DNA of 53,569 nt from positions 1 through 53,569 of IMG/VR virus record IMGVR_UViG_3300045988_160359; one strand, given 5' to 3'. This document shows, one piece after another, positions 1 to 34,553 of the stretch. Position 1 is the stretch's first letter. Each line of letters starts with the position of its first letter. The position numbers and the translations under genes were made by a program. Under the pieces are notes generated by a model that was not told the DNA's origin, ran no database searches, and saw nothing but the letters and a program-made list of their open reading frames with translations. The stretch is from a virus.

Positions 1-11
1 CTTTCTTCATC

Positions 12-52
12 TTATATATATATTATATTATAAATTTATAAAAAAATCAAAT
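12..52. repeat. AT-rich ~40-45 bp element, copy 1
   Basis: tatatatatattatattataaatttataaaaaaatcaa is about 85% identical to the sequence at 2813..2855. The two copies are in direct orientation and flank the early gene block 87..2758. Confidence 0.45.
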
Positions 53-74
53 AAGAGTATTTGGCATCGCCAAA
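43..74. terminator. Hairpin terminator downstream of minus-strand gene 87..398
   Basis: Perfect 13-bp inverted repeat aagagtatttggc / gccaaatactctt. It is flanked by an A-run on one side and T-rich sequence on the other, so it could act on either strand. Confidence 0.5.
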
Positions 75-86
75 TACTCTTATATA

Positions 87-398
87 TTAGTGTCCAAAAT
101 CATAAATTGAGGTTTCGTATACGAATGAATCGTACTGACAGAGACGGAGGTCAGGCTCAATATCCTTCCACCAATCGGGGCAGTATGTAATCTCAGGATA
201 ATGTTCAGCGCGCTGACACATCTGAATATCATCATCCAGGAGTTCCTCGACAAATGCGAGACAAATCTCTTCGGCTTCTGCGCGGTCAATGCCGTGGAAA
301 ATATAGCGCTGGTCAGCATAGAGGGAATCGGGCTCGACAACAAATGCTTTGCGGATTTTAACAGCCATTTTCAATTCTCCTTGTATTGATTTTTCCAA
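87..398 (-). CDS. Hypothetical early protein (103 aa)
   Basis: Intact ORF in the standard code, in the same orientation as the whole early block. No motif recognised. Confidence 0.5.
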   Translation of the reverse strand: MEKSIQGELKMAVKIRKAFVVEPDSLYADQRYIFHGIDRAEAEEICLAFVEELLDDDIQMCQRAEHYPEITYCPDWWKDIEPDLRLCQYDSFVYETSIYDFGH

Positions 399-456
399 AA
401 TTATTTGGTATAATGATAATAGAAATATAAGGTGGTGAAAATCTTGACGAATTTAA

Positions 457-825
457 TTACGCATTATCATAATCAAATATATCTTCATAGTCGCGGTCGT
501 CGTCTATCGCTCGAATCGCGTAAGAATCAATATATTCATTACGCACATCAATGGACATTTCAATTGCGTCTCTATACATTTCTTTGGTTAATGCTGCTGA
601 TTTACCATTTTTGCGCGCGTTTTCTTCCAGTTCGGCAATTATATCATCGAGAGTAGGTAGACGATATTCATTTTCACACTCTTCATAGCGCAAGCAAGTT
701 TCATTGTATGCGCTAGCCTCGGCATCTTCATCATTGTCGAAACGGGCCGAGAACAGATATAGAAATGTGTCAGGTTCATCGACAGTTTCGATGTAGGAAT
801 AGAGATTATAGAGTTCCATTTTCAA
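457..825 (-). CDS. Highly acidic small early protein (122 aa), possible DNA mimic
   Basis: Intact ORF. By my count about 34 Asp/Glu against about 12 Lys/Arg, giving a strong net negative charge. The function is inferred only. Confidence 0.5.
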   Translation of the reverse strand: MKMELYNLYSYIETVDEPDTFLYLFSARFDNDEDAEASAYNETCLRYEECENEYRLPTLDDIIAELEENARKNGKSAALTKEMYRDAIEMSIDVRNEYIDSYAIRAIDDDRDYEDIFDYDNA

Positions 826-1158
826 ATGCCTCTTTAATTAGATTATCATCTTCTACTGGAACGGCGTAAAACCACATATCTACGGTAGTATTCATACAGT
901 ATTGTTTACGCCCGATAGCATCCATTAATTTAGAGTCGATACCTTTTTCAATAAGATAGGGATTCCGGTGCGCCAGGTCGATATAATCTTCAACTCGACC
1001 AATCTGAGGCTCCCACTCAAATTGACTGTCGATACATCGAGTGGCTGCATAGAGAGTGGCCTCATGGAAATTTTCAAACTCTTTTGATTTTTCTTGAATA
1101 CAAGGCGTTTCTCGGTCTGGCGAGAAAACATTATAATAGTAAATATTATACAGCATTA
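806..1158 (-). CDS. Hypothetical early protein
   Basis: The start is placed at the internal Met of MLYNIYYY, which is preceded by GGAGGAG. The track ORF runs 806..1210. Confidence 0.4.
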
Positions 1159-1364
1159 ATACGCTCTCCTCCGTCTCGACTTTCCCAAGCCTCAACGAGA
1201 CGCTTAGCATCCTGCGCGCAAATCGTGATAGGGGCGATATACTCAGACCCTCCGATAGGGAGAATTTTCAGTTTATTGCCGATGCCGATATAGAATGAAC
1301 TGATGGTGTCGAGGTCGATACAGAAACAGCCACAGTCTTCAAGGTTAATTCTAAATAGTGTCAT
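1146..1364 (-). CDS. Hypothetical small early protein
   Basis: The start is placed at MTLFRINLEDCGCF, preceded by GGAGGATGG. The track ORF runs 1146..1412. Confidence 0.4.
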   Translation of the reverse strand: MTLFRINLEDCGCFCIDLDTISSFYIGIGNKLKILPIGGSEYIAPITICAQDAKRLVEAWESRDGGERINAV

Positions 1365-1558
1365 TCTCTTCCATCCTCCGGTATCCAAATTACTGCCGGG
1401 ATTGCTTTCCATACTACTTCTGGAATATCGCCAAACTTATCGAGTGCCTTATCATAGGCATAGGTATCTGCGACGAGGGGATTATTTTCCTCGATAGTTT
1501 CAAGGTAATAAATCGCACCACGTTTGCCGATGTAGATGTCGTAGCCCTTACGTTTCAT
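1361..1558 (-). CDS. Hypothetical small early protein
   Basis: The start is placed at MKRKGYD, preceded by GGAGGAG. The track ORF runs 1361..1612. Confidence 0.4.
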   Translation of the reverse strand: MKRKGYDIYIGKRGAIYYLETIEENNPLVADTYAYDKALDKFGDIPEVVWKAIPAVIWIPEDGRE

Positions 1559-1686
1559 ACGCTCCTCCTGGTCAGTTTTGTTAAATTTAAGAATTTTGCC
1601 CAACGTGCTCACACATTAATGATTACGTCAGGCGAAGGAAAATTTGTTTTAGTCCGAGCAAGAAGCCAATTCTGGCGAATCTTGTT

Positions 1687-1854
1687 GAGTTATTCATCTT
1701 TTGTGGGAAACGGAAATTTATAGGAACCGCCATTTTTGAGAAGCATTACTGTGCTGAAATTTACCTCGCCATTATAGACTTTGGCGACACCAATGATTTC
1801 ACTGGCTTCAACGGTGAAGTAAGGAGAACCGTTATGCATTACTGTAAATATCAT
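1687..1854 (-). CDS. Small ORF (~55 aa) coupled to the upstream gene by an ATGA start/stop overlap
   Basis: Its ATG overlaps the TGA stop of gene 1851..2300. The sequence reads MIFTVMHNGSPYFTVEAS.... It is below the ORF-track size cutoff. Confidence 0.3.
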
Positions 1855-2300
1855 ATAACCTCCTGAATGTTAGCGCAGTATCGAAGTTGTTTATTACAAC
1901 TTTCTGTTTCAGCGTCCCAACAAGGACAACCTTTCTTACACGTAATGAGGATTCTGTCGGGGTTTTTTATAATCGTCTGTCCTATCATATTTCCCTGACG
2001 GATTTGTTTTTGTATTTGTTTCGGAAGTGGCGATGGGTCTGTTTCAAAAAGGCAGATATTCCCATTATGGCAATTATCACATGTAGACAGACGATTACAG
2101 CAATCTGAACAAACAATCTTATTACTTTTGCTATCATAAATTACCTCAGTATGGTGAATTTGACGGTGGCAAATGTCGCACTCGTAGCGTTTGCTACTGA
2201 ATGAGGCACAAGCAATGTTGTGAGAGATAGCCGGTTGTCCACTAATCTTACAGCGCATATCATCGAAATAGGCGCACTCTTTACAGGTTCTTTGCCACAT
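1851..2300 (-). CDS. Cysteine-rich multi-zinc-ribbon protein (149 aa)
   Basis: Many CxxC and CxxH pairs, for example CKEC, CDIC, CSDCC, CDNC and CPC. The function is unknown. Confidence 0.55.
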   Translation of the reverse strand: MWQRTCKECAYFDDMRCKISGQPAISHNIACASFSSKRYECDICHRQIHHTEVIYDSKSNKIVCSDCCNRLSTCDNCHNGNICLFETDPSPLPKQIQKQIRQGNMIGQTIIKNPDRILITCKKGCPCWDAETESCNKQLRYCANIQEVI

Positions 2301-2758
2301 TAGGTTTCATCTCCGTGGCTGGGCATCTCAATAGGGAGGCCGTTCTTAACGCACTCATTGATATATTCGATAGACTGCTGAGACAGAGGGAGTTTGTCAG
2401 AGGGGCCATAGTTGCCGCTGGTCAGATGCTTCTCAATTTCCTTCATAACTTCATCAGTCTTTTCTGCGGACAGCACAGAATTAACATTCTTAAATTGAAC
2501 ATTTTTGTCCTCGCGCGCGTAATCGCTGCTGAAATAGTCGTACTTGGTAATCTTATCAGCAATCCAGTCGGGCGTCAGGAGGACTTCACCGGGCTCCATA
2601 CCTTCAATTTTGATATCCGCGATGTCTTCATCATCAACCATATCACAAACCTTCTCAACCGCATTGGCATAATTTTCGGCATATACGAAACCGTGAGCAT
2701 TCTGTTCAGCGCCATCGAAGAAATGGACGTCGAAACGATAAAAGCCGGCAGCATTCAT
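2300..2758 (-). CDS. Hypothetical early protein (152 aa)
   Basis: Intact ORF preceded by GGAGG. It is the last GC-richer gene before the AT-rich island. Confidence 0.5.
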   Translation of the reverse strand: MNAAGFYRFDVHFFDGAEQNAHGFVYAENYANAVEKVCDMVDDEDIADIKIEGMEPGEVLLTPDWIADKITKYDYFSSDYAREDKNVQFKNVNSVLSAEKTDEVMKEIEKHLTSGNYGPSDKLPLSQQSIEYINECVKNGLPIEMPSHGDET

Positions 2759-2812
2759 ATTTATTACCTCCTGATTAGTTGTAGTTGAACTGTTGTTAAT
2801 TCATTTCTTATT

Positions 2813-2855
2813 GTTTATATATATATTATATAAAAATTTTTATTAAAAATCAATT
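2813..2855. repeat. AT-rich ~40-45 bp element, copy 2, at the left edge of the AT-rich island
   Basis: tatatatatattatataaaaatttttattaaaaatcaa. Compare with 12..52. Confidence 0.45.
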
Positions 2856-2940
2856 AATTATACATTGTACGGCACGCGGAGGACAAAATAGGACAAACAT
2901 ATAAATTATATTTTCAAGATATGGTGAGAGGTGATAAAAA

Positions 2941-3096
2941 TTGGCAAATGAGAATAATACAGTTAAAATCAGTGTTAGACTGACACAAACTGAGAAAGAT
3001 GAATTACAAAATTTTGCCCAAGCGCAGGATTTAACAATGTCTCAGGTTATACGCAAGGCATTGAAAGAGTATATGAATAAAACAGACAGAATCTAA
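2941..3096 (+). CDS. Ribbon-helix-helix (Arc/CopG/omega-like) DNA-binding protein, ~51 aa, TTG start
   Basis: The translation ...VKISVRLTQTEKDELQNFAQAQDLTMSQVIRKALKEYM has the typical RHH beta-strand plus two helices. The TTG start lies 6 nt after GAGAGGTGA. It is below the ORF-track cutoff. Confidence 0.5.
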   Translation: MANENNTVKISVRLTQTEKDELQNFAQAQDLTMSQVIRKALKEYMNKTDRI

Positions 3097-3111
3097 GGAG
3101 TTGCCAAATTA

Positions 3112-3330
3112 ATGCTAAATACTAATAAAAGAAAAATTATATACTCATTAAGAGTATATGTAGGGCTTAAAGAACGAGGGTTTATCCCTATTGCAACAAC
3201 AGAAAATCCTACCAAACCTAATTTTATGTGTTGGATATTTGAACGGTCAGATGAGTTTGATGATGCATTAAAAGAACTTATGCCTGAATGTAAAAATTAT
3301 AAGTCAGGTGGTGAAAAGTCTAATGGCTGA
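3112..3330 (+). CDS. Hypothetical 72-aa protein
   Basis: ATG preceded by AAGGAG. The stop overlaps the start of the next gene as ATGGCTGA. Confidence 0.45.
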   Translation: MLNTNKRKIIYSLRVYVGLKERGFIPIATTENPTKPNFMCWIFERSDEFDDALKELMPECKNYKSGGEKSNG

Positions 3331-3766
3331 TGTTGAAAAACGTTTTGTATTTTATGGAGAATGGTTAAACAATATTAAATCATTAGATTAGGCCACTTAG
3401 GATAAGGTTATTGCTGATATTGTGCGTTATGGCACTAATGAAGATATGTTTTATAGTGATGACCCTGTGGTATCAACTATTGTTAATTTTACCAAAGGGG
3501 CAATTGACCATTCAAAAGATGAATATTTAAAAAAGGTTATGGCAGGTAAAACAAATGGTAGAAAGAAATCTGTTGATGATGATTAGATATTAAAACTTGC
3601 GAGAGAAGGTAAAACCGCGAGTTAGATTGCGGAATTATTGAATTTGAGTGTGAGTTCAGTGAATCATAGCGAGGGATGGAAGCGTCGTAAAGAATCAGTT
3701 GCTGAAAAATCAGTCGTTGAAGAATCGGTGCTTGAATAGAAAAAACCAGTTGAGTTTATATTTTAA
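3323..3766 (+). CDS. DNA-binding protein with a C-terminal resolvase-type HTH; needs read-through of 5 in-frame TAG codons
   Basis: When TAG is read as sense, the single frame gives ...GRKKSVDDD-x-ILKLAREGKTAS-x-IAELLNLSVSSV. Gln fits the HTH consensus at TAS-Q-IAELL. Under the standard code the ORF is only 21 aa long. Confidence 0.5.
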
Positions 3767-3950
3767 TTGCAAATTTGCAAAAATGTTTTTGCAAATTAAT
3801 TGCAATGCAATGCAAAAATGTTTTGCAAATTTTGCAAGTTTGATTGCAACTTGTTGCAATTGCAAATTGCATTATATAATATATATTTTTGCAAAAAAAT
3901 TGCAAAGTTTTTGCAAATTGCAAAAACTTATTTGCAATTTTATTTGACAA
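3766..3950. repeat. Dense array of about 15 copies of the palindromic hexamer TTGCAA, mostly as TTTGCAAA or ATTGCAAT
   Basis: Directly visible in the sequence, for example ttgcaaatttgcaaaaatgtttttgcaaattaattgcaatgcaatgcaaaa...ttgcaattgcaaattgca. Confidence 0.7.
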
Positions 3951-4327
3951 AACTAACGCTGTGGCACTTGAAAAGTGGCAGTAATGGAAAATTTGGAATA
4001 AAAAGTTCCTATTAATGTATAAATATAATATATAAAAAGGATGTATATGGGTATGATAAATTTTTATAAAGGTTCTTATGAGAATTTAGTAAGTAAAGCA
4101 TTAAATTTTTAGAAAATAGATAATATATATTTAACTAATAATAATGATTTATATTTTTGTATTGAGGAAGCAGGAAGGGTAAATAAGGACGTAGAGAATC
4201 CATTTTTAAATGATAATATAAATGAAATATATGGGTTTAATATATAAAAATAAGAAATAAGCGCATACTTACTTTTTATTTGAATTTAATTAGAAAAATT
4301 ATAAATAGGTAAAAGGAGAAATAAAAA

Positions 4328-4807
4328 ATGGGTTATCATAGTGGATTAAATGGGGAATATAATATTCCTGTGGAAGTAAATAATAAGAATGTAGCGCATT
4401 TTAAAAGATGCTGTAAAGAAGAAGTGCCTGAAAAGGCAATTAAAATAGAAACATATTTAAAAGATGATACAATCTATTTTGTATTACCAAATAATTATAA
4501 ACCTGTAAAGATTTGTTTTGATAGTAATGAAGAAGATAAATGCTATGCCTATGGTGGTAAGGGCAATAAAAAGTTGAATACTAATATTGATTTTACTTCA
4601 TCAGACCCTCGTACTACTGGATATTATTAGAATAATGATTATGTAAATATTAGTGATACGACAGATTACGCATAGCCTAATAATACTTATGTTTCTATAT
4701 TTGATTCTCTTCTGGATTTAAGTAAACAAGTAAATGCTATGGGGTATAAAGCAGAAGACGCTAGTGATGTATTAAATAATATATTTGATAAGTTATATAG
4801 TAAATAA
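4328..4807 (+). CDS. Hypothetical protein (~159 aa) with 2 in-frame TAG codons
   Basis: RBS AAAGGAG. Track ORF 4328..4630 ends at a TAG. The same frame then continues to a TAA at 4805-4807. Confidence 0.45.
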
Positions 4808-4961
4808 TTAACAAGGTTAATATTGTGGCATTTGATTTATATATAAAATTATTATATAATATTTATATATAAGAATAGGAGGTGCCATTTTTGAAATTTC
4901 ATTTGAAAAATGGGGTATAAATAGACATTTTGAAAAATGAAATGAAAAAATGAAATGAAAA

Positions 4962-5345
4962 ATGAAAAATGAATTTACTTATGATGAATTGAAAAATAAA
5001 TACAGTAAAAGAGTTGGAAATTATAAAGGCAGAGATGTAATTGTACGCTCTAAATATGATGATTTGGGCGATAATGTATATATTTTATATGATTATAACA
5101 ATGCCCTTATTGTTGATGGCTATTGGATTGCGACTATCAGTGAAGATGGTAGTTTAAATCATAGAAGAGCAACACCCTGGATTAAGATGGATCGAGCCTC
5201 GCCGGCGGGCAGGCCACTAACGTGTCCTGAAAGTGATTCGGGTGGCGAGAATGATATTAGTCTTGATGTTGACTCAACTCTCGTTGATTCTCTCTTGGAA
5301 TCGGCGTATAATGATATTTTGAGCGATTTGATGTATAAAGAATAA
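4962..5345 (+). CDS. Hypothetical protein (127 aa)
   Basis: Intact ORF preceded by an ATGAAA repeat leader. Confidence 0.45.
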   Translation: MKNEFTYDELKNKYSKRVGNYKGRDVIVRSKYDDLGDNVYILYDYNNALIVDGYWIATISEDGSLNHRRATPWIKMDRASPAGRPLTCPESDSGGENDISLDVDSTLVDSLLESAYNDILSDLMYKE

Positions 5346-5347
5346 AA

Positions 5348-5388
5348 AAATGGAGTGGTTTATCGCCACTCCATTTTTTTTAACCAAT
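5348..5388 (+). terminator. Rho-independent terminator closing the island operon
   Basis: ggagtggtttatcgccactcc hairpin followed by tttttttt and preceded by an A-run. Confidence 0.6.
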
Positions 5389-5770
5389 GATGTTTTTTTT
5401 GACTTATAACGCTTTTTTGAATCTGAGGTTAATACTTATTTAATTGTTTTATCTCCTAATAAACTAAATTAAATAAACCTATTAGCGGGGTTAATGAATA
5501 TAATTGTAAATAACGAATAATGGAACCTTATAATGTTTTTTCTTAATAACAAAATGATTATGGTAGAATGATGATAGTTTTGAAAAATTGAAAAATGAGA
5601 AAATGATGGAAGTTTGGTGCCCCCGCTCGGTACCAACTCATCACTCAATTTCATCGTTATCGTCATCCTCTGAATTTTTCAAGATACCCTTTCCAAAAAA
5701 CGTCGAGCCCAGGTATTCTAATCGCCAATTTCCCAAATAAAAAATACCTGGGCCGACACGTTAATCGAAA

Positions 5771-6145
5771 TTAAATGCGAGAAATCCAGTCGTTGAGAAT
5801 TTCGTCTACGGTTTTACCTTTCTTAATCGCACCCTTAGAGTTTGTCTCAAACCGGAAACCAGGCAGTTCAATCTTGAAGTTACCAGGGTCCTTGTAGAAT
5901 TTAAGGAAGTTGTCCATTACCTTAATGACGTCCTCGCCCTTCAACTCTGCACCCTTATAGCCGACGTAGGCCGCATAGTCGTTGATAGCATCGGCAACCG
6001 CTTCCGCTCGGGCCATCTTTTCTTTGTCCTTCTTCTGGTCAGCATATGCCTTGGTGGCGTCATTTAGCATCGCAGTCATTTCCTTAGCAATATCCTCAGC
6101 GCTCTCGCCATTCATTAAGCGCGTCAGAATATCGTTCTTATTCAT
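5771..6145 (-). CDS. Hypothetical early protein (124 aa)
   Basis: Intact ORF. Confidence 0.5.
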   Translation of the reverse strand: MNKNDILTRLMNGESAEDIAKEMTAMLNDATKAYADQKKDKEKMARAEAVADAINDYAAYVGYKGAELKGEDVIKVMDNFLKFYKDPGNFKIELPGFRFETNSKGAIKKGKTVDEILNDWISRI

Positions 6146-6249
6146 ATAAATAACCTCTTTTCATTTTGTATACATATATTATACAAAAAATTTTTTTAAA
6201 AGTCAAGTGAGAAAAAAAATGTTTTTTTTTATCATTATAACATAAATTT

Positions 6250-6490
6250 TTTTTTATGTCAAACCGGGCGGCATATGGGTACCGCTCGGGGCCCTTTACG
6301 GGATTTTTAGGGCGCATATGGAGGCCGCTAGAATTACGGAAAATTTTCCATATGGGGGTACAGATCGGAATTTCGGACCGCAGCGCCCGCGCTCGGCCCG
6401 TTGTATCCTCCCCTTTTATTATACCACACTGGGCTCGCGCTGTCAATAGGCAAAATGAACAAAAATTAAGGGTGGATTTCTCCACCCTTA
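6250..6490 (-). promoter_or_regulatory. Variant terminator-promoter-leader module upstream of 5771..6145
   Basis: On the minus strand the gggtggagaaatccaccc hairpin plus T-run terminator is followed by TTGACA-N17-TATAAT and a long GC-rich leader. Confidence 0.4.
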
Positions 6491-6494
6491 ATTT

Positions 6495-7103
6495 TTAATC
6501 CTCCCACGGCAGTTCGGGCGAGATTTCGTCCAGTTCCGCCTTGTCGTTATAGTCAGCGTTGATTGCCGGAATGTCGATAAACGAACGGCTTGCCACATAG
6601 TCAGCCATGTGTACCAGTCTGTCGATAGGAGTAAACGGTCTATCCGCCTTGTTGGTAGTCCACTGACCCATGTGGGACTTGATGGCTTGCGTCAACTCAT
6701 AGGGGCAATCCTCATTGAAAAACACCATCCATGTCCGGCAAACTTGGTCAGCGGCAATCGCGCCGTGCTGGGCATACTGTTCCTTGTCGAACTCGTGTAA
6801 GCCATACTTGGCTGTATCGTGGAGCAGACAGGCAACTCGTGCGTAGTCCTTGCGCTCGTCAGTCAGATACGCCCACTGGCTCATACGGAGCAATTCCTCA
6901 CAGAACCACGCCACCGCCTTAGTGTGCCGAACCAGACCGCCCTCACCCTGCGACATAGTCGGATGGAACTTACCGGAAGAACTTGCGCCGATAGTCTAGA
7001 AATAATCAGGAACGCGGCAGTCGAAGTAGAAACGCACGAACGAGCGCAAATCCTCGGACTGGATAAACTCGATTTCGTGGTCAAAAAACTGGCTCTTATT
7101 CAT
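6495..7103 (-). CDS. HD-domain phosphohydrolase; the reading frame contains one in-frame TAG at codon 36
   Basis: HD motif LLHDTAKY, with an upstream His in GKFHP/VRHTKAV. A strong AAGGAG lies 8 nt before the ATG at 7103. Codon 36 is TAG, at plus-strand 6996-6998. The track ORF runs 6495..6956, but its ATG has no RBS. Confidence 0.55.
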
Positions 7104-7227
7104 AGTAGTATCTCCTTGCTGTTGGTGGGTTCCAGCTCCCTCAGATTGTTTATAGTATAGCGCATTTCGGGACAAAATGCAATAGTCAATTTATACAAAC
7201 TTTCGCTGGAAAAATTATTGAAAATGT

Positions 7228-7350
7228 GTATTGACAAAAATGCCGGGCGCCACAATCGTGAGCGCCCGGTTCATTATACCACAGTCAGAGGGTGTTGTCA
7301 ATAGTCAAATTGAATAAAAAAATTGCTCTCAATTGAGAGCAATTTGATAA
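7228..7350 (-). promoter_or_regulatory. Promoter / hairpin / terminator module, minus-strand promoter only
   Basis: On the minus strand TTGACA-N17-TATAAT is followed by the conserved hairpin ccgggcgcc...ggcgcccgg. The aaattgctctcaattgagagcaattt hairpin sits at the gene boundary. Confidence 0.5.
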
Positions 7351-7673
7351 GTTCGACGAATGGTAATTTCAACAGACTTCGGCTTCACAGGACAGGCAAA
7401 TCTGTCATTTCTCACAAACACGCCGTATCCCATTTTCTGCCAATGCTCACGGTTTTTGTCCTCGTATCGCAAAGTGTTATACTTGGAGAGCGGTATCGAA
7501 AAATCGTAAACAAATTCAGAATTGTGCGGTAAACGGTGAATGGCGGTTTTGCGATAGTTTCTTGTGTGTTCCTGCTGTCTGCGTTTTAGGTCGTTAGTAG
7601 TGCCTATTTTCAGAATGTATACACCATTTTCATCATAATAGTGCCCTACATACAAAAATTCCTTGTTTTTCAC
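7329..7673 (-). CDS. GIY-YIG nuclease-domain protein
   Basis: Motifs YVGHYY...GVYILKIGTT...RRQQEH. The start is placed at an in-frame GTG preceded by GAGGA. The track ORF starts at a TTG at 7727. Confidence 0.55.
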   Translation of the reverse strand: MKNKEFLYVGHYYDENGVYILKIGTTNDLKRRQQEHTRNYRKTAIHRLPHNSEFVYDFSIPLSKYNTLRYEDKNREHWQKMGYGVFVRNDRFACPVKPKSVEITIRRTYQIALN

Positions 7674-7723
7674 ACTTTTTTCCTCATTTTTCAGGGAAAA
7701 TGGGGGATTTCTCCCCCATTTTC

Positions 7724-8122
7724 TCAACTTTTCGGCTTGCGCTTCTGCACAAGGGTCAGTTCATAGGAATTTTCACCGATTTTGAACGCAATCTGTCTCT
7801 CTTTGTTGGTAATTTCCACATTTTCACAGGCATTTTCGCTGTTTTCGGTCAAAAATCTTGCCAATTCAGCGATAATGGACGCTTTCGTGGGATTTGCCTT
7901 GCGTTCTCTCGTGGTGAATTTGTATGCGGTGGGGGTTTTGCGTGTGCCAGTTTTGGCGAATTTCTGTGCGACTTTGAGCTGTTCTTTCGACAGGTCAAAA
8001 TCCTGTGCCTTGCCCTTGTCGATTTCTCGGTCAGAGTTCCACACGGCTTCTGCTTCATCAGCCGTCCAGCCCATTTTCGCCATAGCGTTTTTCAGCCATT
8101 CAGTTTTGGAGATTTCAGCCAT
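7724..8122 (-). CDS. Cassette protein B (132 aa), paralog of 10339..10695
   Basis: Shares the motif PTAYKF-x2-RERKANPTK-x-IIAEL with 10339..10695. Confidence 0.55.
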   Translation of the reverse strand: MAEISKTEWLKNAMAKMGWTADEAEAVWNSDREIDKGKAQDFDLSKEQLKVAQKFAKTGTRKTPTAYKFTTRERKANPTKASIIAELARFLTENSENACENVEITNKERQIAFKIGENSYELTLVQKRKPKS

Positions 8123-8182
8123 AAAACACCGCCTTTTTAGATTTTAGAGGATAGGGGGGGAGAATGTCTCCCCCCTCATACC

Positions 8183-8635
8183 TTACTTGGCGGTGAAATA
8201 CGCCTTGCGCTTATCCTCGATACGGTCTGCCTGACCGTCCAGCACCATCTGACGCACCAGAGAGGAGACTTTCTGGTTGGATGCCTCGGCGATAGCGGGG
8301 ACAGACTTCATCAGAGCGGACACAGTGAACTTCTCGCCCTTGTGGGCGTCCAGGAACGCCTTGATGTCAGCCTTGATACCCTCGTTTGCCACCTGCGTGG
8401 CGGTCGGCTTCTTGTCCACGGTGTTCTTGCGGTCGAGCAGTTCCAGCTCATGCTTGGCGAACTCCGCCATCTCTGCGGGAGAAATGTCCACATAGACAGT
8501 CTCGAAGTCCTCGGAAGTGCCGATACGCTGGGAAATGGGGAACTTGAACTCGCCCACCTCGGCAAAGGTTTTGAGGGCGGTGAAGTAGTCGCGCTTGGTC
8601 ATACGGCGGTTAGCGGTGGAAGTGATAGCAGTCAT
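8183..8635 (-). CDS. Cassette protein A, paralog of 10747..11178
   Basis: Shares HELELLDRKNTVDKKPT-x-TQ and NQKVSSLVRQMVLDGQ...EDKRKA with its paralog. The start is placed at the internal Met of MTAITST. Confidence 0.5.
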   Translation of the reverse strand: MTAITSTANRRMTKRDYFTALKTFAEVGEFKFPISQRIGTSEDFETVYVDISPAEMAEFAKHELELLDRKNTVDKKPTATQVANEGIKADIKAFLDAHKGEKFTVSALMKSVPAIAEASNQKVSSLVRQMVLDGQADRIEDKRKAYFTAK

Positions 8636-8894
8636 AGTATCAACCCTTTCTGCGTTTTTAGGTGTCGCCCACCATATTGTTGTTTCCCTCTTGGAACATC
8701 TATATTCTAACACATATCCGAAGCCTTGTCAAGACTTTTTTTCGGATTTGTGGAATTTTTTTTAAGGTACACGCCCCGCCGGAGAACCTCTCGCCCTCTC
8801 CCTTGGAACAATTATATACTACCACACCCTTGGGCAGATTTCAATAGTCAATACTCACAAAAAATGGGATTTTCAACATCCAAAATTTGTGCAA

Positions 8895-9050
8895 AAAAAC
8901 ACTTGACAAAATTTGTGCTCCGTGGTATAATGGAAATTTCGGGTGCCATAGCCGTGAGCGCCCGACCCATTTTAACACATTTGAGCGCATTTGTCAATAG
9001 GTAAAATGCACAAAAATAAACCAGCGTAGTTGGCTACTACGCTGGTTCCC
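8895..9050. promoter_or_regulatory. Convergent-promoter / hairpin / terminator module
   Basis: The plus strand has TTGACA-N17-TATAAT at ~8903-8931. The minus strand has TTGACA-N17-TAAAAT at ~8997-8969. Between them lies the hairpin cgggtgccatagccgtgagcgcccg. The accagcgtagttggctactacgctggt hairpin follows. Confidence 0.55.
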
Positions 9051-9407
9051 CTGTTGATACTCGCCAGCCGTCCGGACAGCCAGCCCACTTCTACACAGCT
9101 TGACACTTAGAGCAGGCGCAATGCCCATGTAAAGGTCTTTCTCGGCACGCGGTGAATGTGGTTAGAACTTCGTACCCAGTCCCAATTTCTAACGAGGGGT
9201 TCAAGATGGCGGTTGAGAAGAAATTATTGAGTGGGACAAACACTCTATTAAACTCCATCTTGGCTGGGGTCTTAATCAATCTATAATACATATCTAATCA
9301 ATAAATCATAGATTGATTACTAAGGTGGTCGATACAATCGCCATTTCATTTTTCTCACCTCACGATGTTAGTATAGCATAGGCGGGGCTGTTTGTCAAGA
9401 GTTTTTT

Positions 9408-10091
9408 TCAAAATTCCAAATCATCACAGACGCCATAGCCGGAGAAATCGAGGATAACCGGAGAAATGCCAATGTAGCCGATGTTTGAGCCGTGGAGGTC
9501 GTTGATGTGATACTTTTTAACGAACTCACAGAGGGCGATAACCTTGCGTTTGCCGTAGATAGAAACGGCAACTTTCGCCCATAGCCCATCGAGGTCGCGC
9601 CCGTAGCCGTTAACATCAGCTTTGCGGAACTGACGCTCGATTTGAGAAATACGACAGTCGGGGACAGTCTTTGCGATACGCGAGAGACGAGTTTTTATAC
9701 CGTCCTCACTCCAATGGATTTTGTGTGCGCTGTTGGTGATAATCTGTTGTGCGGTAAACGCAACAGGGTCATCACCCTCACGCGGAGGAACAATGTAGCC
9801 AGCCAACTCGGTGGCGGGGAAAAAATCCGCGAGGTTTGCATCTACGGCTTTCTTATACACAGCCACTTCGCGCTCTGCATCCCGCGTCTCCGTAGACCAT
9901 TTGAGGACATACCCCAAATCAGGGAACACCAGACATTCCTTGCTTGCGCCGTTGCTGGACGCTACTTTGACATTAGGATATGCGTCGTGGATAACGCGGG
10001 CTAAGGTGTCCGCGTCTCTGACGCGCCTTGGCTTTTCAGATACCGCCTGCTGAATGGTCAGGATAAAATCCTGAACTCTCGGAAACTTCAT
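9408..10091 (-). CDS. Protein-kinase-like early protein (APH/CotH-like fold; 227 aa)
   Basis: VAVYKK (VAxK-like), YHINDLHGSNIGY (Brenner-type HxDLHxxN catalytic loop) and ILDFSGYG (DFG-like). The RBS is AAAGGAG. Confidence 0.45.
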   Translation of the reverse strand: MKFPRVQDFILTIQQAVSEKPRRVRDADTLARVIHDAYPNVKVASSNGASKECLVFPDLGYVLKWSTETRDAEREVAVYKKAVDANLADFFPATELAGYIVPPREGDDPVAFTAQQIITNSAHKIHWSEDGIKTRLSRIAKTVPDCRISQIERQFRKADVNGYGRDLDGLWAKVAVSIYGKRKVIALCEFVKKYHINDLHGSNIGYIGISPVILDFSGYGVCDDLEF

Positions 10092-10194
10092 CGTTCATCG
10101 CTCCTTTCAGTATCATTATTATAACACATTACAGGGGAATTGCAATAGTCAATACCTACAAAAAACGGGATTTCCAACATCCAAAATTTGTGCA

Positions 10195-10340
10195 AAAAAA
10201 CGCTTGACAAAATTGCCAGTGGGGGTGTATAATAGAAATTTCGAGCGCCACATACGTGGACGCGCGACCGAATTATACCACACGCGCCCGGATTTGTCAA
10301 TAAGCAAAATGCACAAAAATGAGGGAGATTTCTCTCCCTC
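10195..10340. promoter_or_regulatory. Convergent-promoter / hairpin / terminator module
   Basis: Plus strand TTGACA-N18-TATAAT and minus strand TTGACA-N17-TATAAT. The central hairpin is gcgccacatacgtggacgcgc. On the minus strand a gagggagagaaatctccctc hairpin plus T-run terminator follows. Confidence 0.55.
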
Positions 10341-10695
10341 ACTTGCGCGGGCACGACAGCACAACCTTGTATTTTGTTCCATCAAGCGTGAATAAAAATT
10401 CGCGCTCCGCGTTGCTCACGTTCAGGTCAGTCGCGCCGTATGTGGTCAGTGTCTCGGTCAGCAGAGTGATGATAGTCTGCTTTGTGGGATTAGCCTTTCT
10501 TTCTCTTGGTGCGAACTTGTATGCGGTCGGCTGGCGTCCTACTCCCCGCGCTTTCTTGCTTGCCTTTTCCTGTTCTTCGGTCAGCGGAAACGGATTGCCG
10601 CCCTTGTCGATGATAGCATCTTGAACAATAATGTCCTTTGCTTCGGCTTCGGTGCAATCCAGCTTTCGCATGAGGTCGGCAACTCGGTCAGTCAT
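10339..10695 (-). CDS. Cassette protein B' (118 aa)
   Basis: PTAYKFAPRERKANPTKQTIITLL, paralogous to 7724..8122. Confidence 0.55.
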   Translation of the reverse strand: MTDRVADLMRKLDCTEAEAKDIIVQDAIIDKGGNPFPLTEEQEKASKKARGVGRQPTAYKFAPRERKANPTKQTIITLLTETLTTYGATDLNVSNAEREFLFTLDGTKYKVVLSCPRK

Positions 10696-10746
10696 GCGGT
10701 ACTCCTTTCAGGGGTAGGGTGGGGATTGCTCCCCACCCTTTGAGGT

Positions 10747-11178
10747 TTACGCGCTCACCTTGCGGAAGAACGCCTTGCGCTTGTCCTCCACGCGCTCCAC
10801 CTGCTTATCCAGCACCATCTGCCGGACGAGGGAGGACAGCTTCTGATTGCTCATGTCCTTGCAGACGGGGAACTCTTTGAGCATCTCGCTGATGGAATAC
10901 AGCCGGTTGCTCTCCATAGCGGACAGGACAGTGGTCTTGATGACCTCATTCTCCTGCTGGGTCTTGGTGGGCTTCTTATCCACGGTGTTCTTGCGGTCGA
11001 GCAGGTCGATTTCGTGGGTGATGAACTCCACCAGCTTGGGGTCAGCCTTGACCTCGGACAGGTTCAGCAGGGCGGTGAAATTGTCGCGCTTGGTGGGCTT
11101 GCGGGTGGTGGTGTTAGTGTTAGCCATAGTATCAATTCCTTTCTCCATTTGGTTTTGAGGGCTTTGCCCTCCTGACAT
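10747..11178 (-). CDS. Cassette protein A'
   Basis: Paralogous to 8183..8635. The true start may be the internal Met of MANTNTTT at about 11127. Confidence 0.5.
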   Translation of the reverse strand: MSGGQSPQNQMEKGIDTMANTNTTTRKPTKRDNFTALLNLSEVKADPKLVEFITHEIDLLDRKNTVDKKPTKTQQENEVIKTTVLSAMESNRLYSISEMLKEFPVCKDMSNQKLSSLVRQMVLDKQVERVEDKRKAFFRKVSA

Positions 11179-11880
11179 TATCTATTATAACAGCTTGCGC
11201 TGGGATTGTCAAGAGTTTTTTCAAAATTCTTGATTTTTTTTGATAGTGTCAACAGGGGAACGCTCCACAAGGGTTCACAGACGACTTACCACCTCGCCTG
11301 ACGAATAAGGTGTTGCTGTTGGTTCAACGTTTCCATGCGCATGGACGAACTGACCAATCTACTCACTTTTCGTTCATCGTTTGGGTTTACTGCGCTGGTA
11401 TAGTCCTTACTTCCTTTACTCTCACACGGTTCGCGACCCGTGGATTTCTTGGGTGGGGCTATTCCCCTCTTGACATTATCAATTATAACACAGGTGCTGG
11501 GGATTGTCAAGAGGTTTTTTGAAATTTTTCCAAATTTCTGAAACCTGTCTACACAGGCGACACATTAGACGCATCTGCCGTGCCGTTCCCCTCTTGACAT
11601 TATCCATTATAACACAGATGCTGGGGATTGTCAAGAGGGGAAATGCGGGTCAGTTACCGAGTTGTCACACCCGCCAGCGTGGCTCCCCCGAGGAGCAACT
11701 TGCTGTCCCCTCTTAACATTATTCATTATAGCACCTTTGATGGAGTTTGTCAAGAGGGAATTTTGGTCTTTTTTTTCAGTACGGCGCGCTCTCACTTACA
11801 CTTGGGACATTACCTACCATTAGCCCAGCCCACGGGGTCTCACCCCCTCTTGACATTATGTAGTATAGCACAGGTGAGCA
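11165..11880 (-). repeat. Tandem array of five ~50-bp palindromic promoter repeats (CTCTTGACA ... TGTCAAGAG)
   Basis: Copies at ~11168, 11464, 11590, 11707 and 11845. On the minus strand each reads TTGACA-N17-TATAAT(TATAGC). They are separated by 70-250 nt of non-coding sequence. Confidence 0.6.
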
Positions 11881-11929
11881 TGAATTACAATAGGCAAACT
11901 ATACAAGTTTCGGGAAAAATAAATAAAAA

Positions 11930-12090
11930 AATTTGTGTAAAAAAACTCTTGACAAAATTGCTGGCGGGGTGTATAATGGTGAATTCCGGCCGAGACGCGC
12001 GAAATCGGCCGGCCATTATACCATGCCCAGGCGCGTTTGTCAATAGGGAAAATTATACAAAAAATGAGGGGAAAATCCCCTCATTTTTTA
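11930..12090. promoter_or_regulatory. Convergent-promoter / hairpin / terminator module
   Basis: TTGACA-N17-TATAAT on both strands. The central hairpin is ccggccgagacgcgcgaaatcggccgg. A bidirectional terminator follows: gaggggaaaatcccctc with A/T runs on both sides. Confidence 0.55.
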
Positions 12091-12621
12091 GTCCATCTGA
12101 CAAGCGAGAAATGCGTCCCGCTTTTCGTTCAGTTTGACGATTTCACCCGCGATTTTGTCAGCCCTCATAGCCAACAGACGCCCATAGCTTCTGCGCCACG
12201 CCAGCATACCATCGGGATTGACCGTGTAAATATACTTTTCCTTTTCCACGGTCTTGGTGTCCTTACGCTCCGTGCGGAAATTCTGTCCATTCATAGTCCG
12301 CAGAGCGTTCTGCGCCACTTCCGGCAACCGCATCCAGTCATACTCGGTCATCAGGGCGTTGCCATCCTTGTCAATCATCCAGATTTCCGCTTCCCACGGG
12401 TCGAGCGTGATTTCCTTGGTGGATTTCTCGGTGCGAACTGCCTTGATGATACCCTCGTCCCGCAGGAACGCCAGAGAATTGTAGGTGTATCGCCGATAGT
12501 CGTGCTTTGCTTTGGTGAAGTCCTCGGAAGTGAACTCCTTATTCCCGAACAGGTCTACCAGCCACTTGTAGGTCTTGACCGTGCGGTTGAAGTTGTGAAC
12601 GTTAGCGTAGCGAGCTTTCAT
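12088..12621 (-). CDS. Hypothetical early protein (177 aa)
   Basis: Intact ORF. Confidence 0.5.
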   Translation of the reverse strand: MKARYANVHNFNRTVKTYKWLVDLFGNKEFTSEDFTKAKHDYRRYTYNSLAFLRDEGIIKAVRTEKSTKEITLDPWEAEIWMIDKDGNALMTEYDWMRLPEVAQNALRTMNGQNFRTERKDTKTVEKEKYIYTVNPDGMLAWRRSYGRLLAMRADKIAGEIVKLNEKRDAFLACQMD

Positions 12622-14231: not shown

Positions 14232-14384
14232 AGTATCAACTTCCTTTCTTGATTGTAATGCTATTATACAGGATAAAACGCAATTTGTCAACAGTTTTTT
14301 TCGGTTTTGCTCTTGGTCATTTCGCACAAACTTTCGGGATGCGCGCTTGGGCAAATTTGTTCAATTTACCTATTGACAAAATTG

Positions 14385-14520
14385 CTGGCAGGGTGTATAA
14401 TGGAAATTTCGAGCGCCAGGGCCGTGGGCGCTCGGCCGAGTATACCACAAATAGGGGTGTTTGTCAATAGGTAAATTGAACAAAAAAAATCTCCCAAATT
14501 TGGGAGATTTTTCAATTTAC
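14385..14520. promoter_or_regulatory. Convergent-promoter / hairpin / terminator module
   Basis: Plus strand TTGACA-N17-TATAAT. Minus strand TTGACA-N17-TATACT. Hairpin tcgagcgccagggccgtgggcgctcgg. Terminator tctcccaaatttgggaga. Confidence 0.55.
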
Positions 14521-14720
14521 TTGTTGGCGTGGAGAATGGAGTGCAGGATTACGACAATGAGCCAAATGACCAGCACCAGCTTCCACGAGAACACGATGGC
14601 GAAAGAGCCGATGGACGCGATGCCGATAGCAGGGAGAAGCCAGCAGAACAGCCAAACCAGTCCGGCGGTACACAGGAAGTCGAAAGCGGCAAGTGCCAAA
14701 AACAACAGAACGATGAACAT
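14517..14720 (-). CDS. Small hydrophobic membrane protein (67 aa)
   Basis: Almost entirely hydrophobic. The RBS is GAGAGGAG. Confidence 0.5.
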   Translation of the reverse strand: MFIVLLFLALAAFDFLCTAGLVWLFCWLLPAIGIASIGSFAIVFSWKLVLVIWLIVVILHSILHANK

Positions 14721-16134: not shown

Positions 16135-16345
16135 TTTCTCTACTCCTTAACATATTGTCAGTAAATTCGTTGGAGAACTCCTCGGCGAAATCCTCACCAT
16201 AACCACGATTGGCAATTACCTCCATAACTGTCTCAATGCCGGACATATAATAGGGATTGCCGTTGATGGCATCATAACGCCCTTGGAACATAGGGCATTC
16301 GCGCAGGTCGCTGAAAACCATCTGATACGCTTTCTTCAACTCCAT
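16127..16345 (-). CDS. Hypothetical small protein (72 aa)
   Basis: Intact ORF. Confidence 0.45.
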   Translation of the reverse strand: MELKKAYQMVFSDLRECPMFQGRYDAINGNPYYMSGIETVMEVIANRGYGEDFAEEFSNEFTDNMLRSRENV

Positions 16346-16424
16346 TGTTCTTACCTCCTTGTTTCAGTATAGCCATTATACCGTATTACAGGATAGAAGT
16401 CAATCGTCAAATTGCACAAAATTG

Positions 16425-16560
16425 CGGCGAAAAATTTGTGGAGTATACCTATTGACAAAATGCCGGGCGCCACAATCGTTGGCGCGCGGCCGAAAATGTC
16501 AAGTGAAAAATTATACAAAATTTGGGCTGGATTTTTGTTCATCCAGCCCAAATGATTTTT
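16425..16560. promoter_or_regulatory. Degenerate copy of the promoter / hairpin / terminator module
   Basis: It has TTGACA boxes and the gccgggcgccacaatcgttggcgcgcggc hairpin, but weak -10 elements. The gggctggatttttgttcatccagccc terminator is present. Confidence 0.4.
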
Positions 16561-17725: not shown

Positions 17726-17953
17726 TTATTTACCGATTTCCACTTTTTCAGTGGGGGCAAGCATTTGAAGCACATTGGCTGTAAGCGCGACGTCCACTCT
17801 GTCATAGCCATTCCCGCAAGTATCGCTCACATACTCGCAATCATTATCGGCGATGACATCATACAATTCATTGAGAATGTCATAGGCGTCGCGCAAGGTT
17901 TTCCGTTCATTCTCTGTCAACTTGGCATAGATGGGAGCTTTGATAATTTCCAT
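17726..17953 (-). CDS. Small protein, paralog of 17480..17710
   Basis: The start is placed at MEIIKAP after AAAGGAG. Confidence 0.45.
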   Translation of the reverse strand: MEIIKAPIYAKLTENERKTLRDAYDILNELYDVIADNDCEYVSDTCGNGYDRVDVALTANVLQMLAPTEKVEIGK

Positions 17954-18022
17954 TTTGATATTCTCCTTTCTCTTGGTATTATCTATTATAGCAGATAAGG
18001 ACTTGTTTGTCAAGCCCTTATC

Positions 18023-18352
18023 TTAATTTTTATTCATCAGGTAGTTAGTCTCGATAGTCCAACCGCAGTCTTGACAGGTGTAGTAAAATGTTTCGCTCAT
18101 ACGGTAGCGAGTAGAGGAAGAGAAGCGGTATTCGCCGCCGCACTTGACACATACGCCATTATTGAAAGTGTCGCAGTCATTGATGTGTTCCTGTCCCATC
18201 ATAGCACCAACACCGAAGAAGATAGCACAGCAGATAATGAATGACAGTACCTTGCTCACCCAACGGTCGCAACACCCAATAGCAACAGATAAACCGATAG
18301 GCAGACCAGCGACACCACCCATAAGCAGACCACCGATAATTACATCAGACAT
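18023..18352 (-). CDS. Membrane protein with a C-terminal zinc ribbon
   Basis: The start is placed at MSDVIIGG after AAGGGAGG. CVKCGG...CQDCG. Confidence 0.45.
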   Translation of the reverse strand: MSDVIIGGLLMGGVAGLPIGLSVAIGCCDRWVSKVLSFIICCAIFFGVGAMMGQEHINDCDTFNNGVCVKCGGEYRFSSSTRYRMSETFYYTCQDCGWTIETNYLMNKN

Positions 18353-18422
18353 TTTTTCGTCCTCCCTTGTTTTGTTATACTCATTATAGCAGAAATGGGG
18401 CTTGTTGTCAAGCCCCAATTTT

Positions 18423-18746
18423 CTACTTTACTACATAAAATTCGGGGTGGCGTTCTTCATTCTTGCGAATGCGCTTGACCAACTGTTGAGGTAAGCGGTT
18501 TTTGCCAGCACTCTTGTATATAGCGACAGCCCGTTCAAAGGTTGCGGGGTATGCGGTGATGATGAAATTCTCATATAAGTCCAGCACCAAAATGATGCCA
18601 GTCGAGAGCAAACGCAGGCGCGCAGTTTGGCGTTGGTCAATGACCTCAATCATCACGCGGTCAGAATATCCGAGATATTCCTGTAAGAGGGCGAGCCGGT
18701 TAGCCCGCTCCTCTGTCAGATGGTTCGACATAGTGTAGTTTTCCAT
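18423..18746 (-). CDS. Hypothetical protein (~107 aa)
   Basis: The start is placed at MENYTMSN after GGGGTGG. The track's 186-aa ORF fuses it with the upstream gene. Confidence 0.4.
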   Translation of the reverse strand: MENYTMSNHLTEERANRLALLQEYLGYSDRVMIEVIDQRQTARLRLLSTGIILVLDLYENFIITAYPATFERAVAIYKSAGKNRLPQQLVKRIRKNEERHPEFYVVK

Positions 18747-18751
18747 ATTAC

Positions 18752-18928
18752 CACCCCATATTGAACACGAAGCGCACCAGACCGATACAGGCAACGCCAT
18801 ATAGGATAGAGCCAACGAGGAAGTGCCAGTCGTGCGTCTGACGATAGACCATATACCCGCCGACACACTGAACGCCAGCGAAGCCAGCGAGGGCGAGGAT
18901 TGCGAGGATTGCGATAGTAGCCATTGTG
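18752..18928 (-). CDS. Small membrane protein (~58 aa)
   Basis: MATIAILAILALAGFAGV... after AAAGGAGG. Confidence 0.35.
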
Positions 18929-26966: not shown

Positions 26967-27008
26967 TTTTGAGATGCCTGTTATTGGATAGATATAAGGA
27001 GGAAAATT

Positions 27009-34536: not shown

Positions 34537-34553
34537 GAAAGGAGAGAAGAATA

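Follow-up and report, generated by a model that had tools for sequence, protein, structure and literature searches.

Genes and repeats of an amber-recoded island

The stretch of phage DNA analysed here (the window; 53,569 nucleotides, IMG/VR record IMGVR_UViG_3300045988_160359) carries at positions 2760-5760 an AT-rich island in which the gene of a predicted site-specific DNA-binding protein, gC, is followed directly by an array of TTGCAA hexamers. From position 1 to ~24000 the window is coded mostly on the minus strand with a GC content of 0.40-0.52, and from ~24000 to the end on the plus strand with GC of ~0.30. Across 2500-5500 GC drops to 0.23-0.34, compared with 0.40-0.50 on either side, and six open reading frames (ORFs), gA to gF, occupy the plus strand of the island when TAG is read as Gln. 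Codon usage is late-like in six of these six genes (log-likelihood ratio +0.11 to +0.63 per codon) by a score that is negative in 26 of 26 early genes and positive in 18 of 18 late genes of the window.

In-frame TAG is absent from the early set (0 of 3418 codons, minus strand) and present at 119 of 8108 codons in the late set, whose long genes were restored once ORF calling treated TAG as sense; among them are those of a sigma-like protein, the large terminase subunit (TerL), the portal and virion proteins, and a 2765-amino-acid (aa) ORF with 63 TAG. Within the island gC has five in-frame TAG, gD one and gE two, and gA, gB and gF have none. Codon 26 of gC, a TAG, aligns with a position at which 23 homologues invariably have Gln, and some of these (for example at locus L012 of a relative) write it as CAA, which indicates that TAG stands for Gln. 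With TAG at a conserved Gln, late-like codons and TAA/TGA stops all found, the island has the features of an amber-recoded late-type module. A tRNA search of the window revealed no tRNA and no suppressor tRNA, and an Rfam search found no RNA family. Since gC requires five TAG to be read, the function of the cassette would be exerted after amber suppression is established and thus be gated to the recoded phase. A preliminary description of this DNA had depicted an AT-rich, TAG-recoded plus-strand segment encoding a ribbon-helix-helix (RHH) protein, a 72-aa protein, a helix-turn-helix (HTH) protein with five TAG and two further TAG-containing ORFs; the GC and TAG profiles show its composition to be distinctive next to a TAG-free early set, and the RHH, 72-aa and HTH genes are as it described them, TAG occurring in three genes (gC, gD and gE).

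The first gene, gA (2941-3096, plus strand, TTG start), encodes the 51-aa RHH protein, which matches the Pfam families DUF6290 (30.5 bits, cut-off 27), NikA-like (27.8, cut-off 27), RHH_9 (25.1, cut-off 23.4) and RHH_1 (23.7, cut-off 20.5). Its best NCBIfam match is the ORF56 plasmid copy-control family, below cut-off, and its L046 homologue matches RepB-RCR_reg, likewise below cut-off. Upstream of gA, two plus-strand copies of AGGACAAA placed 10 bp apart at 2880-2897 form a candidate RHH operator, and the same 10-bp tandem repeats (..ACAAAGTA) precede the RHH gene in L006, L012, L015 and L048; we infer that RHH proteins bind the AGGACAAA repeats and that gA is autoregulated. The following gene, gB (3112-3330, plus strand), encodes the 72-aa protein with weak similarity to DUF5659, and PDB searches by sequence and profile returned no fold for its family.

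Overlapping gB, gC (3323-3766, plus strand) encodes a 147-aa protein in which a helical DUF6291 N-domain is followed by a resolvase-type HTH with a GRKK arm ahead of it, and the C-terminus is a ...KKPVEFIF tail. With TAG translated as Gln it scores 45.1 bits against DUF6291 (cut-off 27.2) and 30.6 bits against HTH_7 (cut-off 23.8), and by profile it matches the DNA-binding domains of gamma-delta and Tn3 resolvases at ~3e-4. A serine recombinase was considered and rejected for gC, as only the C-terminal HTH and arm match and the helical DUF6291 N-terminus contains no catalytic domain. The AlphaFold model of P0001, a protein 95% identical to gC, has a predicted local distance difference test score (pLDDT) of 79 and displays a helical N-domain, a linker, the HTH and a disordered tail; a fold search with this model found no match for the N-domain. 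In tblastn searches gC had no match among phages and P0013, its close homologue from L012, none among plasmids, while a profile search for distant DUF6291 relatives recovered only members of the same phage group and no association outside it. A literature search gave no mention of DUF6291, DUF5659 or DUF6945, and mentions of DUF6290 that held nothing useful.

Directly after the gC stop codon lies the TTGCAA array (3760-3945, no strand), with nine hexamers at 3767-3865 and five at 3889-3937. These 171 bp (3767-3937) hold 14 of the 27 TTGCAA in the window, whereas no 171-bp window exceeded four in 2000 composition-matched simulations, so that the operator-like array noted earlier is confirmed. 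The ~23-bp spacer between the two clusters (3866-3888) consists of A and T save for one TTGCAT-type half site. An (ATATAA)n tract occurs in L005, although A/T-richness has low specificity because the whole island is AT-rich.

Further downstream, gD (4047-4247, plus strand) is a 66-aa ORF of uncertain coding status in the right part of the variable core described below, flanked by remnants of a 57-aa gene found in cassette types T2, T3 and T6 (its start at 3983-4000 and its tail at ~4270-4310). The 159-aa gE (4328-4807, plus strand) occurs in all close relatives at 53-73% identity, and the 127-aa gF (4962-5345, plus strand) is conserved at 60-80% identity. No significant Pfam, PHROG or NCBIfam family was found for gB, gD, gE or gF. 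Together with their homologues in L001-L038, gE and gF each have a conserved N-terminal part and a Gly/Pro/Ser-rich hypervariable linker in which relatives differ by indels, and they end in a similar C-terminal helix (..FDSLLDLSKQ.. and ..VDSLLESAYNDIL..), suggesting that the two may be paralogues.

An ancestral locus with an exchanged core

Relatives were collected as six IMG/VR contigs (100-198 kb, from one metagenome) with the right-hand flanking gene at 82-99% identity, eighteen human-gut contigs with the left-hand flanking gene, and further loci reached through binder homologues; a megablast of positions 1-12000 against GenBank phages gave no match. All recovered loci that span the region have an AT-rich plus-strand island enclosed by the same pair of leftward operons, with GC of 0.25-0.31 against 0.37-0.45 in the flanks, and the island is present even in phages whose flanking gene is only ~37% identical at the protein level. 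No empty site was found among more than 20 loci. The island is therefore better regarded as ancestral than as recently inserted and, judged from these comparisons, is an ancestral AT-rich locus of a group of human-gut phages, ~190-205 kb in size, in whose late genes TAG is read as Gln.

The preliminary description had proposed instead that the segment was inserted or hitchhiking. A recent insertion of the whole 3 kb as a mobile element would account for the distinct composition, for the orientation opposite to the neighbours and for the absence or replacement of the core in close relatives. It is nevertheless highly improbable, because genes of the gE/gF type and the convergent terminators occupy the same place in all spanning relatives, distant ones included, because family matches of the island proteins and the sequence itself reveal no integrase, transposase, recombinase or flanking target repeats at the island, and because the repeat taken for its boundary is a promoter that recurs elsewhere. 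Of the earlier picture, the distinctive composition stands, but position and synteny are conserved across relatives. Its view of a self-contained cassette and not ordinary early genes agrees with the combination found here of a regulator, a DNA-binding protein and a site array.

What is exchanged is the core (~2858-4310), with gE, gF and the terminators retained. On both sides most IMG/VR relatives match the window at 84-92% DNA identity, and L006, the most divergent of them, at 78-84%; the match ends at 2857 or 3082 and returns at 4296-4311, with unrelated sequence between. Among phages with flanks 76-95% identical there are at least six non-homologous versions of the core, each pairing its own DNA-binding protein with its own repeat array, and every relative with both flanks carries one of these cassette types. 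Type T1, that of the window (and identically of L022), consists of gA, gB, gC and the TTGCAA array. In T2 (L005), gA and a gB variant (gB') are followed by a 187-aa HTH protein and 29 GGTTGTA/TACAACC sites over ~670 bp, and in T3 (L006, L035) gA and gB' accompany a 181-aa protein, a diverged relative of the T2 protein, and GTTTGTA / TTGGTAAAA repeats. Type T4 (L001, L004, L025, L026, with diverged relatives in L018-L021 and L040-L045) encodes a 209-aa double winged-helix protein without gA or gB; its 22-bp iterons (AAGTGGTCAAAATTTTCTATAA) have an exact 22-bp period, are semi-palindromic around A4T4, and number 6-7 upstream and 4 downstream of the gene. A T4 cassette is also present in the complete relative OIYG01000010.1 (201,425 bp). 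The 194-aa protein of T5 (L028, L029, L038) is 28-30% identical to that of T4 and is accompanied by ~10 TAGGTAAT repeats. Finally, T6 (L023, L031) combines a 185-aa protein, a gB homologue and a 131-aa winged-helix-like protein with TTGGAACAAAAAGTT repeats.

The enrichment of each motif is limited to its own cassette. Counts in the own cassette and in the rest of the locus or window are 15 and 12 for TTGCAA, 29 and 1 for GGTTGTA, 11 and 0 for GTTTGTA, 6 and 1 for TGGTCAAAA, 11 and 3 for AGGTAAT, and 5 and 0 for TTGGAACAA. TTGCAA arrays also follow the gC homologues of L012, L015 and L048, and a drifted TTTACAA array follows that of L046: TTGCAA is kept beside gC homologues that are 58-60% identical, and TTTACAA/TTGTACAA is found beside those that are 52-55% identical. 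Similarly, GTGGTCAAAA drifts to TTGTCCAAAA at 47% protein identity, and a 47%-identical relative of T4 has GTTGTCCAAAATTTTCT. As motif and protein co-vary, each array appears to be the target of the adjacent protein, and the core is very probably a cassette of a cognate DNA binder and its site array.

Although their DNA-binding parts are unrelated, the T1, T2, T3 and T6 binders share a K-K-x-x-[FY]-x-F end (EFIF, YDF, FNF and EFVF), and a gB homologue accompanies every binder with this tail; T4 and T5 have neither the tail nor gB. The common tail points to a shared partner, which may be gB itself or another protein. The T4 and T5 binders model or score as double winged helices, with weak matches to HTH_36, a DnaD-like loader, lambda O, replisome organisers and the N-terminal domain of pSK41 RepA. 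For T5 the HTH_36 score is 24.2 bits against a cut-off of 25, and its weak scores also include the DnaD-like phrog_186 (1e-3). T4/T5-type binders have replication-protein matches in BFVD at E values of 1e-3 to 4e-2. Sequence and profile searches of PDB with the WH2 protein and the WH2 family were empty, and a DNA search with the WH2 protein yielded one unannotated match, 29% identical.

Recoding varies among the cassettes. The T2 binder has ~9 TAG to be read, and T5 alleles encoding near-identical proteins differ in TAG number (1 vs 4), which suggests that binders are under no pressure against TAG. The gC homologue of L015 ends in a TAG stop (6388-6390) and, like that of L012, is free of in-frame TAG. 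It thus appears that part of the group reads this locus by the standard code, and the lineage of the window would have accumulated TAG.

Seven of the 18 metagenome contigs stop at 50-160 bp from where the left flanking gene begins, several IMG/VR contigs end inside the island, and many binder homologues lie on contigs of 1-5 kb. Because within-sample mixtures of alleles disrupt assembly, contigs break at the junction of conserved and variable sequence, and cassette exchange accounts for the assembly breaks at this locus.

Candidate functions of the binder-array cassette

The reading that we favour, tentatively and without counting it probable, is that the cassette is a phage initiator-plus-iteron replication origin gated by TAG read-through. 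According to this reading gC would oligomerise on the TTGCAA array, the complex would destabilise the A/T spacer, and replication proteins would be recruited through the C-terminal EF-x-F tail of gC, through gB or through both, with gA as an RHH autoregulator acting at the tandem sites in the promoter region. As gC would be made only once amber suppression is active, the function would be confined to the recoded phase, and alleles would turn over because new specificities of origin or incompatibility are selected for among strains that circulate together. Several features are origin-like: the hexamers that directly follow the binder ORF on its 3' side and are parted by an AT-rich stretch in their middle, the tandem T4 iterons on either side of the gene and overlapping the promoter region, and the RHH gene ahead of the binder, as in the CopG/ORF56 copy-control layout. 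The double winged-helix form of the T4 and T5 binders and their weak matches to replication proteins speak for an origin too. Many short, binder-specific repeats lie beside the binder gene, as in iteron-type replicons, and the universal presence of the locus among relatives with both flanks fits an essential function.

The origins of staphylococcal pathogenicity islands (SaPIs) contain 6-12 hexanucleotide iterons just downstream of the binder ORF with a central AT-rich split, and the matched specificity of Rep and iterons differs between related elements (PMC9371898). The window resembles them in its hexamers 3' of the binder (14 here), in the AT-rich split and in the matched specificity. In contrast, the Rep of SaPIs is a helicase whose winged helix is C-terminal, whereas gC combines DUF6291 and HTH_7 with no ATPase, and no primase or helicase gene adjoins it. 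Semi-palindromic tandem iterons allow a comparison with P1/F-type and RepA_N replicons (PMC7145576). Like P1 oriR-repA-incA, F oriS-repE, RepA_N replicons and RepA of PLEs (elements resembling phage-inducible chromosomal islands), T4 and T5 have 22-bp tandem repeats flanking a gene for a ~200-aa double winged-helix protein, the upstream set overlapping the gene's own promoter region and all iterons being semi-palindromic around an A/T tract. Unlike these replicons, the cassettes have at most weak Rep_3, RepA_N and DnaD matches, T1 uses palindromic hexamers and HTH_7, the cassette lies within a ~200-kb phage, and binder genes contain in-frame TAG. In pMV158 CopG-RepB and pRN1 ORF56 the order is the same, with a small RHH gene directly upstream of the binder in one operon, but here the family matches fall below curated cut-offs and there is no rolling-circle Rep and no primase-polymerase.

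A number of results weigh against an origin. No binder is a member of any known initiator family, DnaD-like organisers included, and Rep_3, RepA_N and Phage_rep_O are missing from the Pfam matches up to E 0.1. Sequence searches with the binders returned no PDB chain, even at E 10. Genes for a helicase, primase or loader are absent from the island and its immediate neighbourhood, and the island contains no DnaA boxes. GC skew tracks the direction of transcription and gives no independent origin signal. The helical phasing of TTGCAA (R = 0.63 at 11.0 bp) is non-significant against a null 95th percentile of 0.645, and the L005 array, with at least 29 sites over ~670 bp, exceeds typical origins. 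An initiator translatable only after the code switch is moreover unexpected, and late-type, TAG-containing coding suits packaging at least as well.

That last point leads to packaging, in which the binder would be the small terminase or pac-recognition subunit, the array would be pac with its clusters flanking the cleavage region, and the tail would dock on TerL. A late function would agree with the late-type codon usage and with the TAG content, and the unrelated DNA-binding parts of T1, T2, T3 and T6 with their common tail fit a swapped recognition part and a kept TerL-docking part. The pac site of P1 likewise consists of hexamer repeats in two clusters around the cut site, an arrangement that the two TTGCAA clusters resemble, and there too a small DNA-binding subunit sets the specificity of a late function. 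Weak matches to phrog_309 ('terminase small subunit') cover the HTH region, and no small terminase is identifiable by homology beside TerL. We nonetheless consider this function unlikely: the cassette lies in the early region, ~24 kb from TerL (28207-29940), a 398-aa gene already occupies the usual small-terminase place directly upstream of TerL, and the T4 and T5 binders are devoid of the common tail. Gene-flanking tandem 22-bp iterons and arrays of at least 29 sites are atypical of pac, the arrays are much larger than those of P1 and other small-terminase pac sites, neither the gC model (by fold search) nor its family is terminase-like, and contig ends gather at the junction of conserved and variable sequence and not within the array.

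Far above known operators in size, with 14-30 sites per array, the cassettes are decidedly unlikely to serve regulation or immunity, by which the binder would act as a repressor or roadblock, the arrays would be operators for the island and the adjacent early promoters, and allele switching would create heteroimmunity between related phages, in the manner of lambdoid imm regions. Additional clusters of sites, which L012, L015 and T4 have in the divergent promoter region, could control the island promoter or the leftward early one, the RHH and HTH proteins have PHROG matches to transcriptional regulators, exchange would require no conserved partner protein, and a regulator with TAG in its gene would come into play only once the code has switched. 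However, in the window itself the promoter region of the cassette is free of sites, other promoters lack the motifs (12 TTGCAA occur elsewhere in 53 kb, against ~31 expected in the whole window), the locus is universal and fixed in position, and no integrase or lysogeny genes were seen. A centromere with its binding protein, segregating or positioning an episomal phage genome by a motor encoded elsewhere, appears quite improbable. R1 parC, the pSM19035 omega sites and tubC consist of at least 10 short repeats bound by small RHH, winged-helix or HTH proteins and lie at or over their own promoter, and the arrays resemble them; the T4 and T5 binders match phrog_3396, annotated 'ScpB', incompatibility would account for the diversification of alleles, and the conserved tail could touch the motor. 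Yet no ParA, ParM or TubZ gene lies in the island or within 5-10 kb in any relative examined, known par operons place the gene of the binder downstream of that of an NTPase, which is not the arrangement here, and there is no evidence of plasmid persistence for these phages.

Returning to the origin, a more specific version of it is doubtful: a multi-allelic replicon-identity (origin/incompatibility) cassette that a widespread group of ~200-kb gut phages would build on uncharacterised initiator families, gated by the code switch and turned over by conflict. One initiator type would combine DUF6291 and HTH_7 with a C-terminal EF-x-F resembling the tip of single-stranded-DNA-binding protein (SSB) and with the DUF5659-like gB, the other would be the tail-less double winged-helix type, and turnover would be driven by co-infecting phages, satellites or origin-targeting defences. 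In a GTDB scan WH2-type cassettes were found in metagenome-assembled-genome bins of inconsistent taxonomy, and Clostridia hosts are for this reason only tentative.

Lambdoid and lactococcal phages, SaPIs and PLEs are classical examples of the exchange of specificity modules for origin, immunity or packaging. Close relatives among lambdoid and lactococcal phages have non-homologous modules of a DNA-binding protein and its sites at one position; the present locus differs from them in at least six alleles within ~90% average nucleotide identity, far larger arrays, amber recoding and the RHH-gB pair. Novelty lies in the phages themselves, an uncultured group of amber-recoded gut phages of ~190-205 kb, in how many alleles share a single site, in the families to which the binders belong (DUF6291/HTH_7 accompanied by gB, and the double winged-helix type without a tail), in the code-switch dependence, and in the TTGCAA motif with a probable DNA-binding role for DUF6291 proteins. 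If the cassette determines the origin or the packaging specificity, it would offer a handle on the onset of replication or packaging in large, uncultured amber-recoded gut phages and would show that such steps can be made subject to the code switch. Whatever its function, the locus presents at least six orthogonal natural pairs of protein and repeat motif, which presumably bind each other and which, under the replicon-identity reading, would form a natural toolbox of orthogonal protein-site pairs.

Promoters, terminators and neighbouring transcription units

At the left edge of the island an AT-rich, sigma-70-like promoter element (2813-2857, minus strand; -35 at 2853-2848, -10 at 2830-2825) serves gene 2300-2758. 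It is kept in all cassette types, and the left recombination boundary falls at 2857|2858. As noted earlier, the element recurs at the window start (12-54, minus strand), where it reads TTGATT-17-TATAAT (site 50 to 22) just downstream, on the minus strand, of a terminator hairpin at 51-83; a third promoter of this type (TTGATT-17-TATAAT; 4832-4860, plus strand) lies upstream of the TAG-free gF. The suggestion that the copy at 12-54 marks a second island does not hold, since L004 has four copies within 7 kb and the equivalent of the 12-54 copy in L005 and L004 has a standard-code minus-strand gene on either side. Rather than bounding an island, the 40-bp element is a leftward promoter that recurs. 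Gene 2300-2758, described before as left without the promoter module of the other early genes, indeed lacks the dispersed GC-hairpin early promoter module, but it has its own promoter because the AT-rich element is a minus-strand TTGATT-17-TATAAT.

The early promoter module itself is a minus-strand unit of 140-200 bp with a terminator hairpin, TTGACA-17-TGnTATAAT, a GC-rich hairpin leader (GGCCGGGCGC..GCGCCCGAAATTT) and TTGTCAA / TTGACTATTGAA motifs. At least seven copies, 72-82% alike, lie at 6150-6500, 7190-7360, 8830-9060, 10130-10360, 11880-12110, 14300-14530 and 16330-16540, and the module is repeated in all relatives too. A distinct late-promoter motif was sought as well, but late-region promoters are likewise TTGACA-17-TATAAT, and the promoter type therefore gives no date for the island.

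The plus-strand transcripts of the island end at an intrinsic terminator with A/T runs on both sides (5344-5388; -21 kcal/mol, z -5.5), and the minus-strand operon ending with gene 5771-6145 is closed by a terminator hairpin with a U-run (5709-5752, minus strand; -32.7 kcal/mol, z -5.6); the terminator and hairpin reported before at 5348-5388 and ~5700-5750 are thus real, both folding at z of about -5.5. Between these convergent terminators, the ~320 bp at 5389-5708 hold no assigned gene. A plus-strand ORF at 5603-5740 (45-51 aa, ...MEVWCPRSVPTHHSISSL...) is conserved in L004, L005 and L006, where the DNA is ~90% identical, so that its coding cannot be judged from this conservation.

The first two genes of the late operon (25905-28205) are read from a consensus TTGACA-17-TGTATAAT promoter. 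The operon begins with a sigma-factor-like gene (phrog_5767, 2e-53), whose product has a C-terminal Zn-ribbon/HNH-like tail. The next gene (27009-28205), directly upstream of TerL, encodes a 398-aa protein with a Zn-ribbon and an acidic part (phrog_3314), which could be the small terminase. Pfam gave no matches for the sigma-like, 398-aa and TerL proteins, and the small terminase is consequently not placeable.

Outside the island, the presumed top-expressed late genes at 33601-35660 and 39769-40848 (capsid-region proteins and a virion structural protein) are TAG-free with GC of 0.38-0.41, and the late genes neighbouring them contain 2-10 TAG each. Minus-strand gene 18423-18800 is the sole early gene in the set with a TAG stop, the others ending in TAA or TGA, and its product would lengthen if TAG were read as Gln. 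The 2765-aa ORF with 63 in-frame TAG (42694-50991, plus strand) is of tape-measure-like size; very long tape-measure proteins have been noted in another amber-recoded gut phage group with Clostridia hosts (PMC10607447). In L005, to the left of the equivalent of the window start, positions 17775-18885 form an extra low-GC, TAG-containing insert that is not in L004. It encodes a 63-aa RHH protein (1 TAG) together with a 309-aa one (6 TAG) that carries three CxCDCG...SCGCLS zinc-finger-like repeats and whose C-terminus is endonuclease-like, and the insert looks like a homing-endonuclease-type insertion, making it a better candidate for a true hitchhiker.

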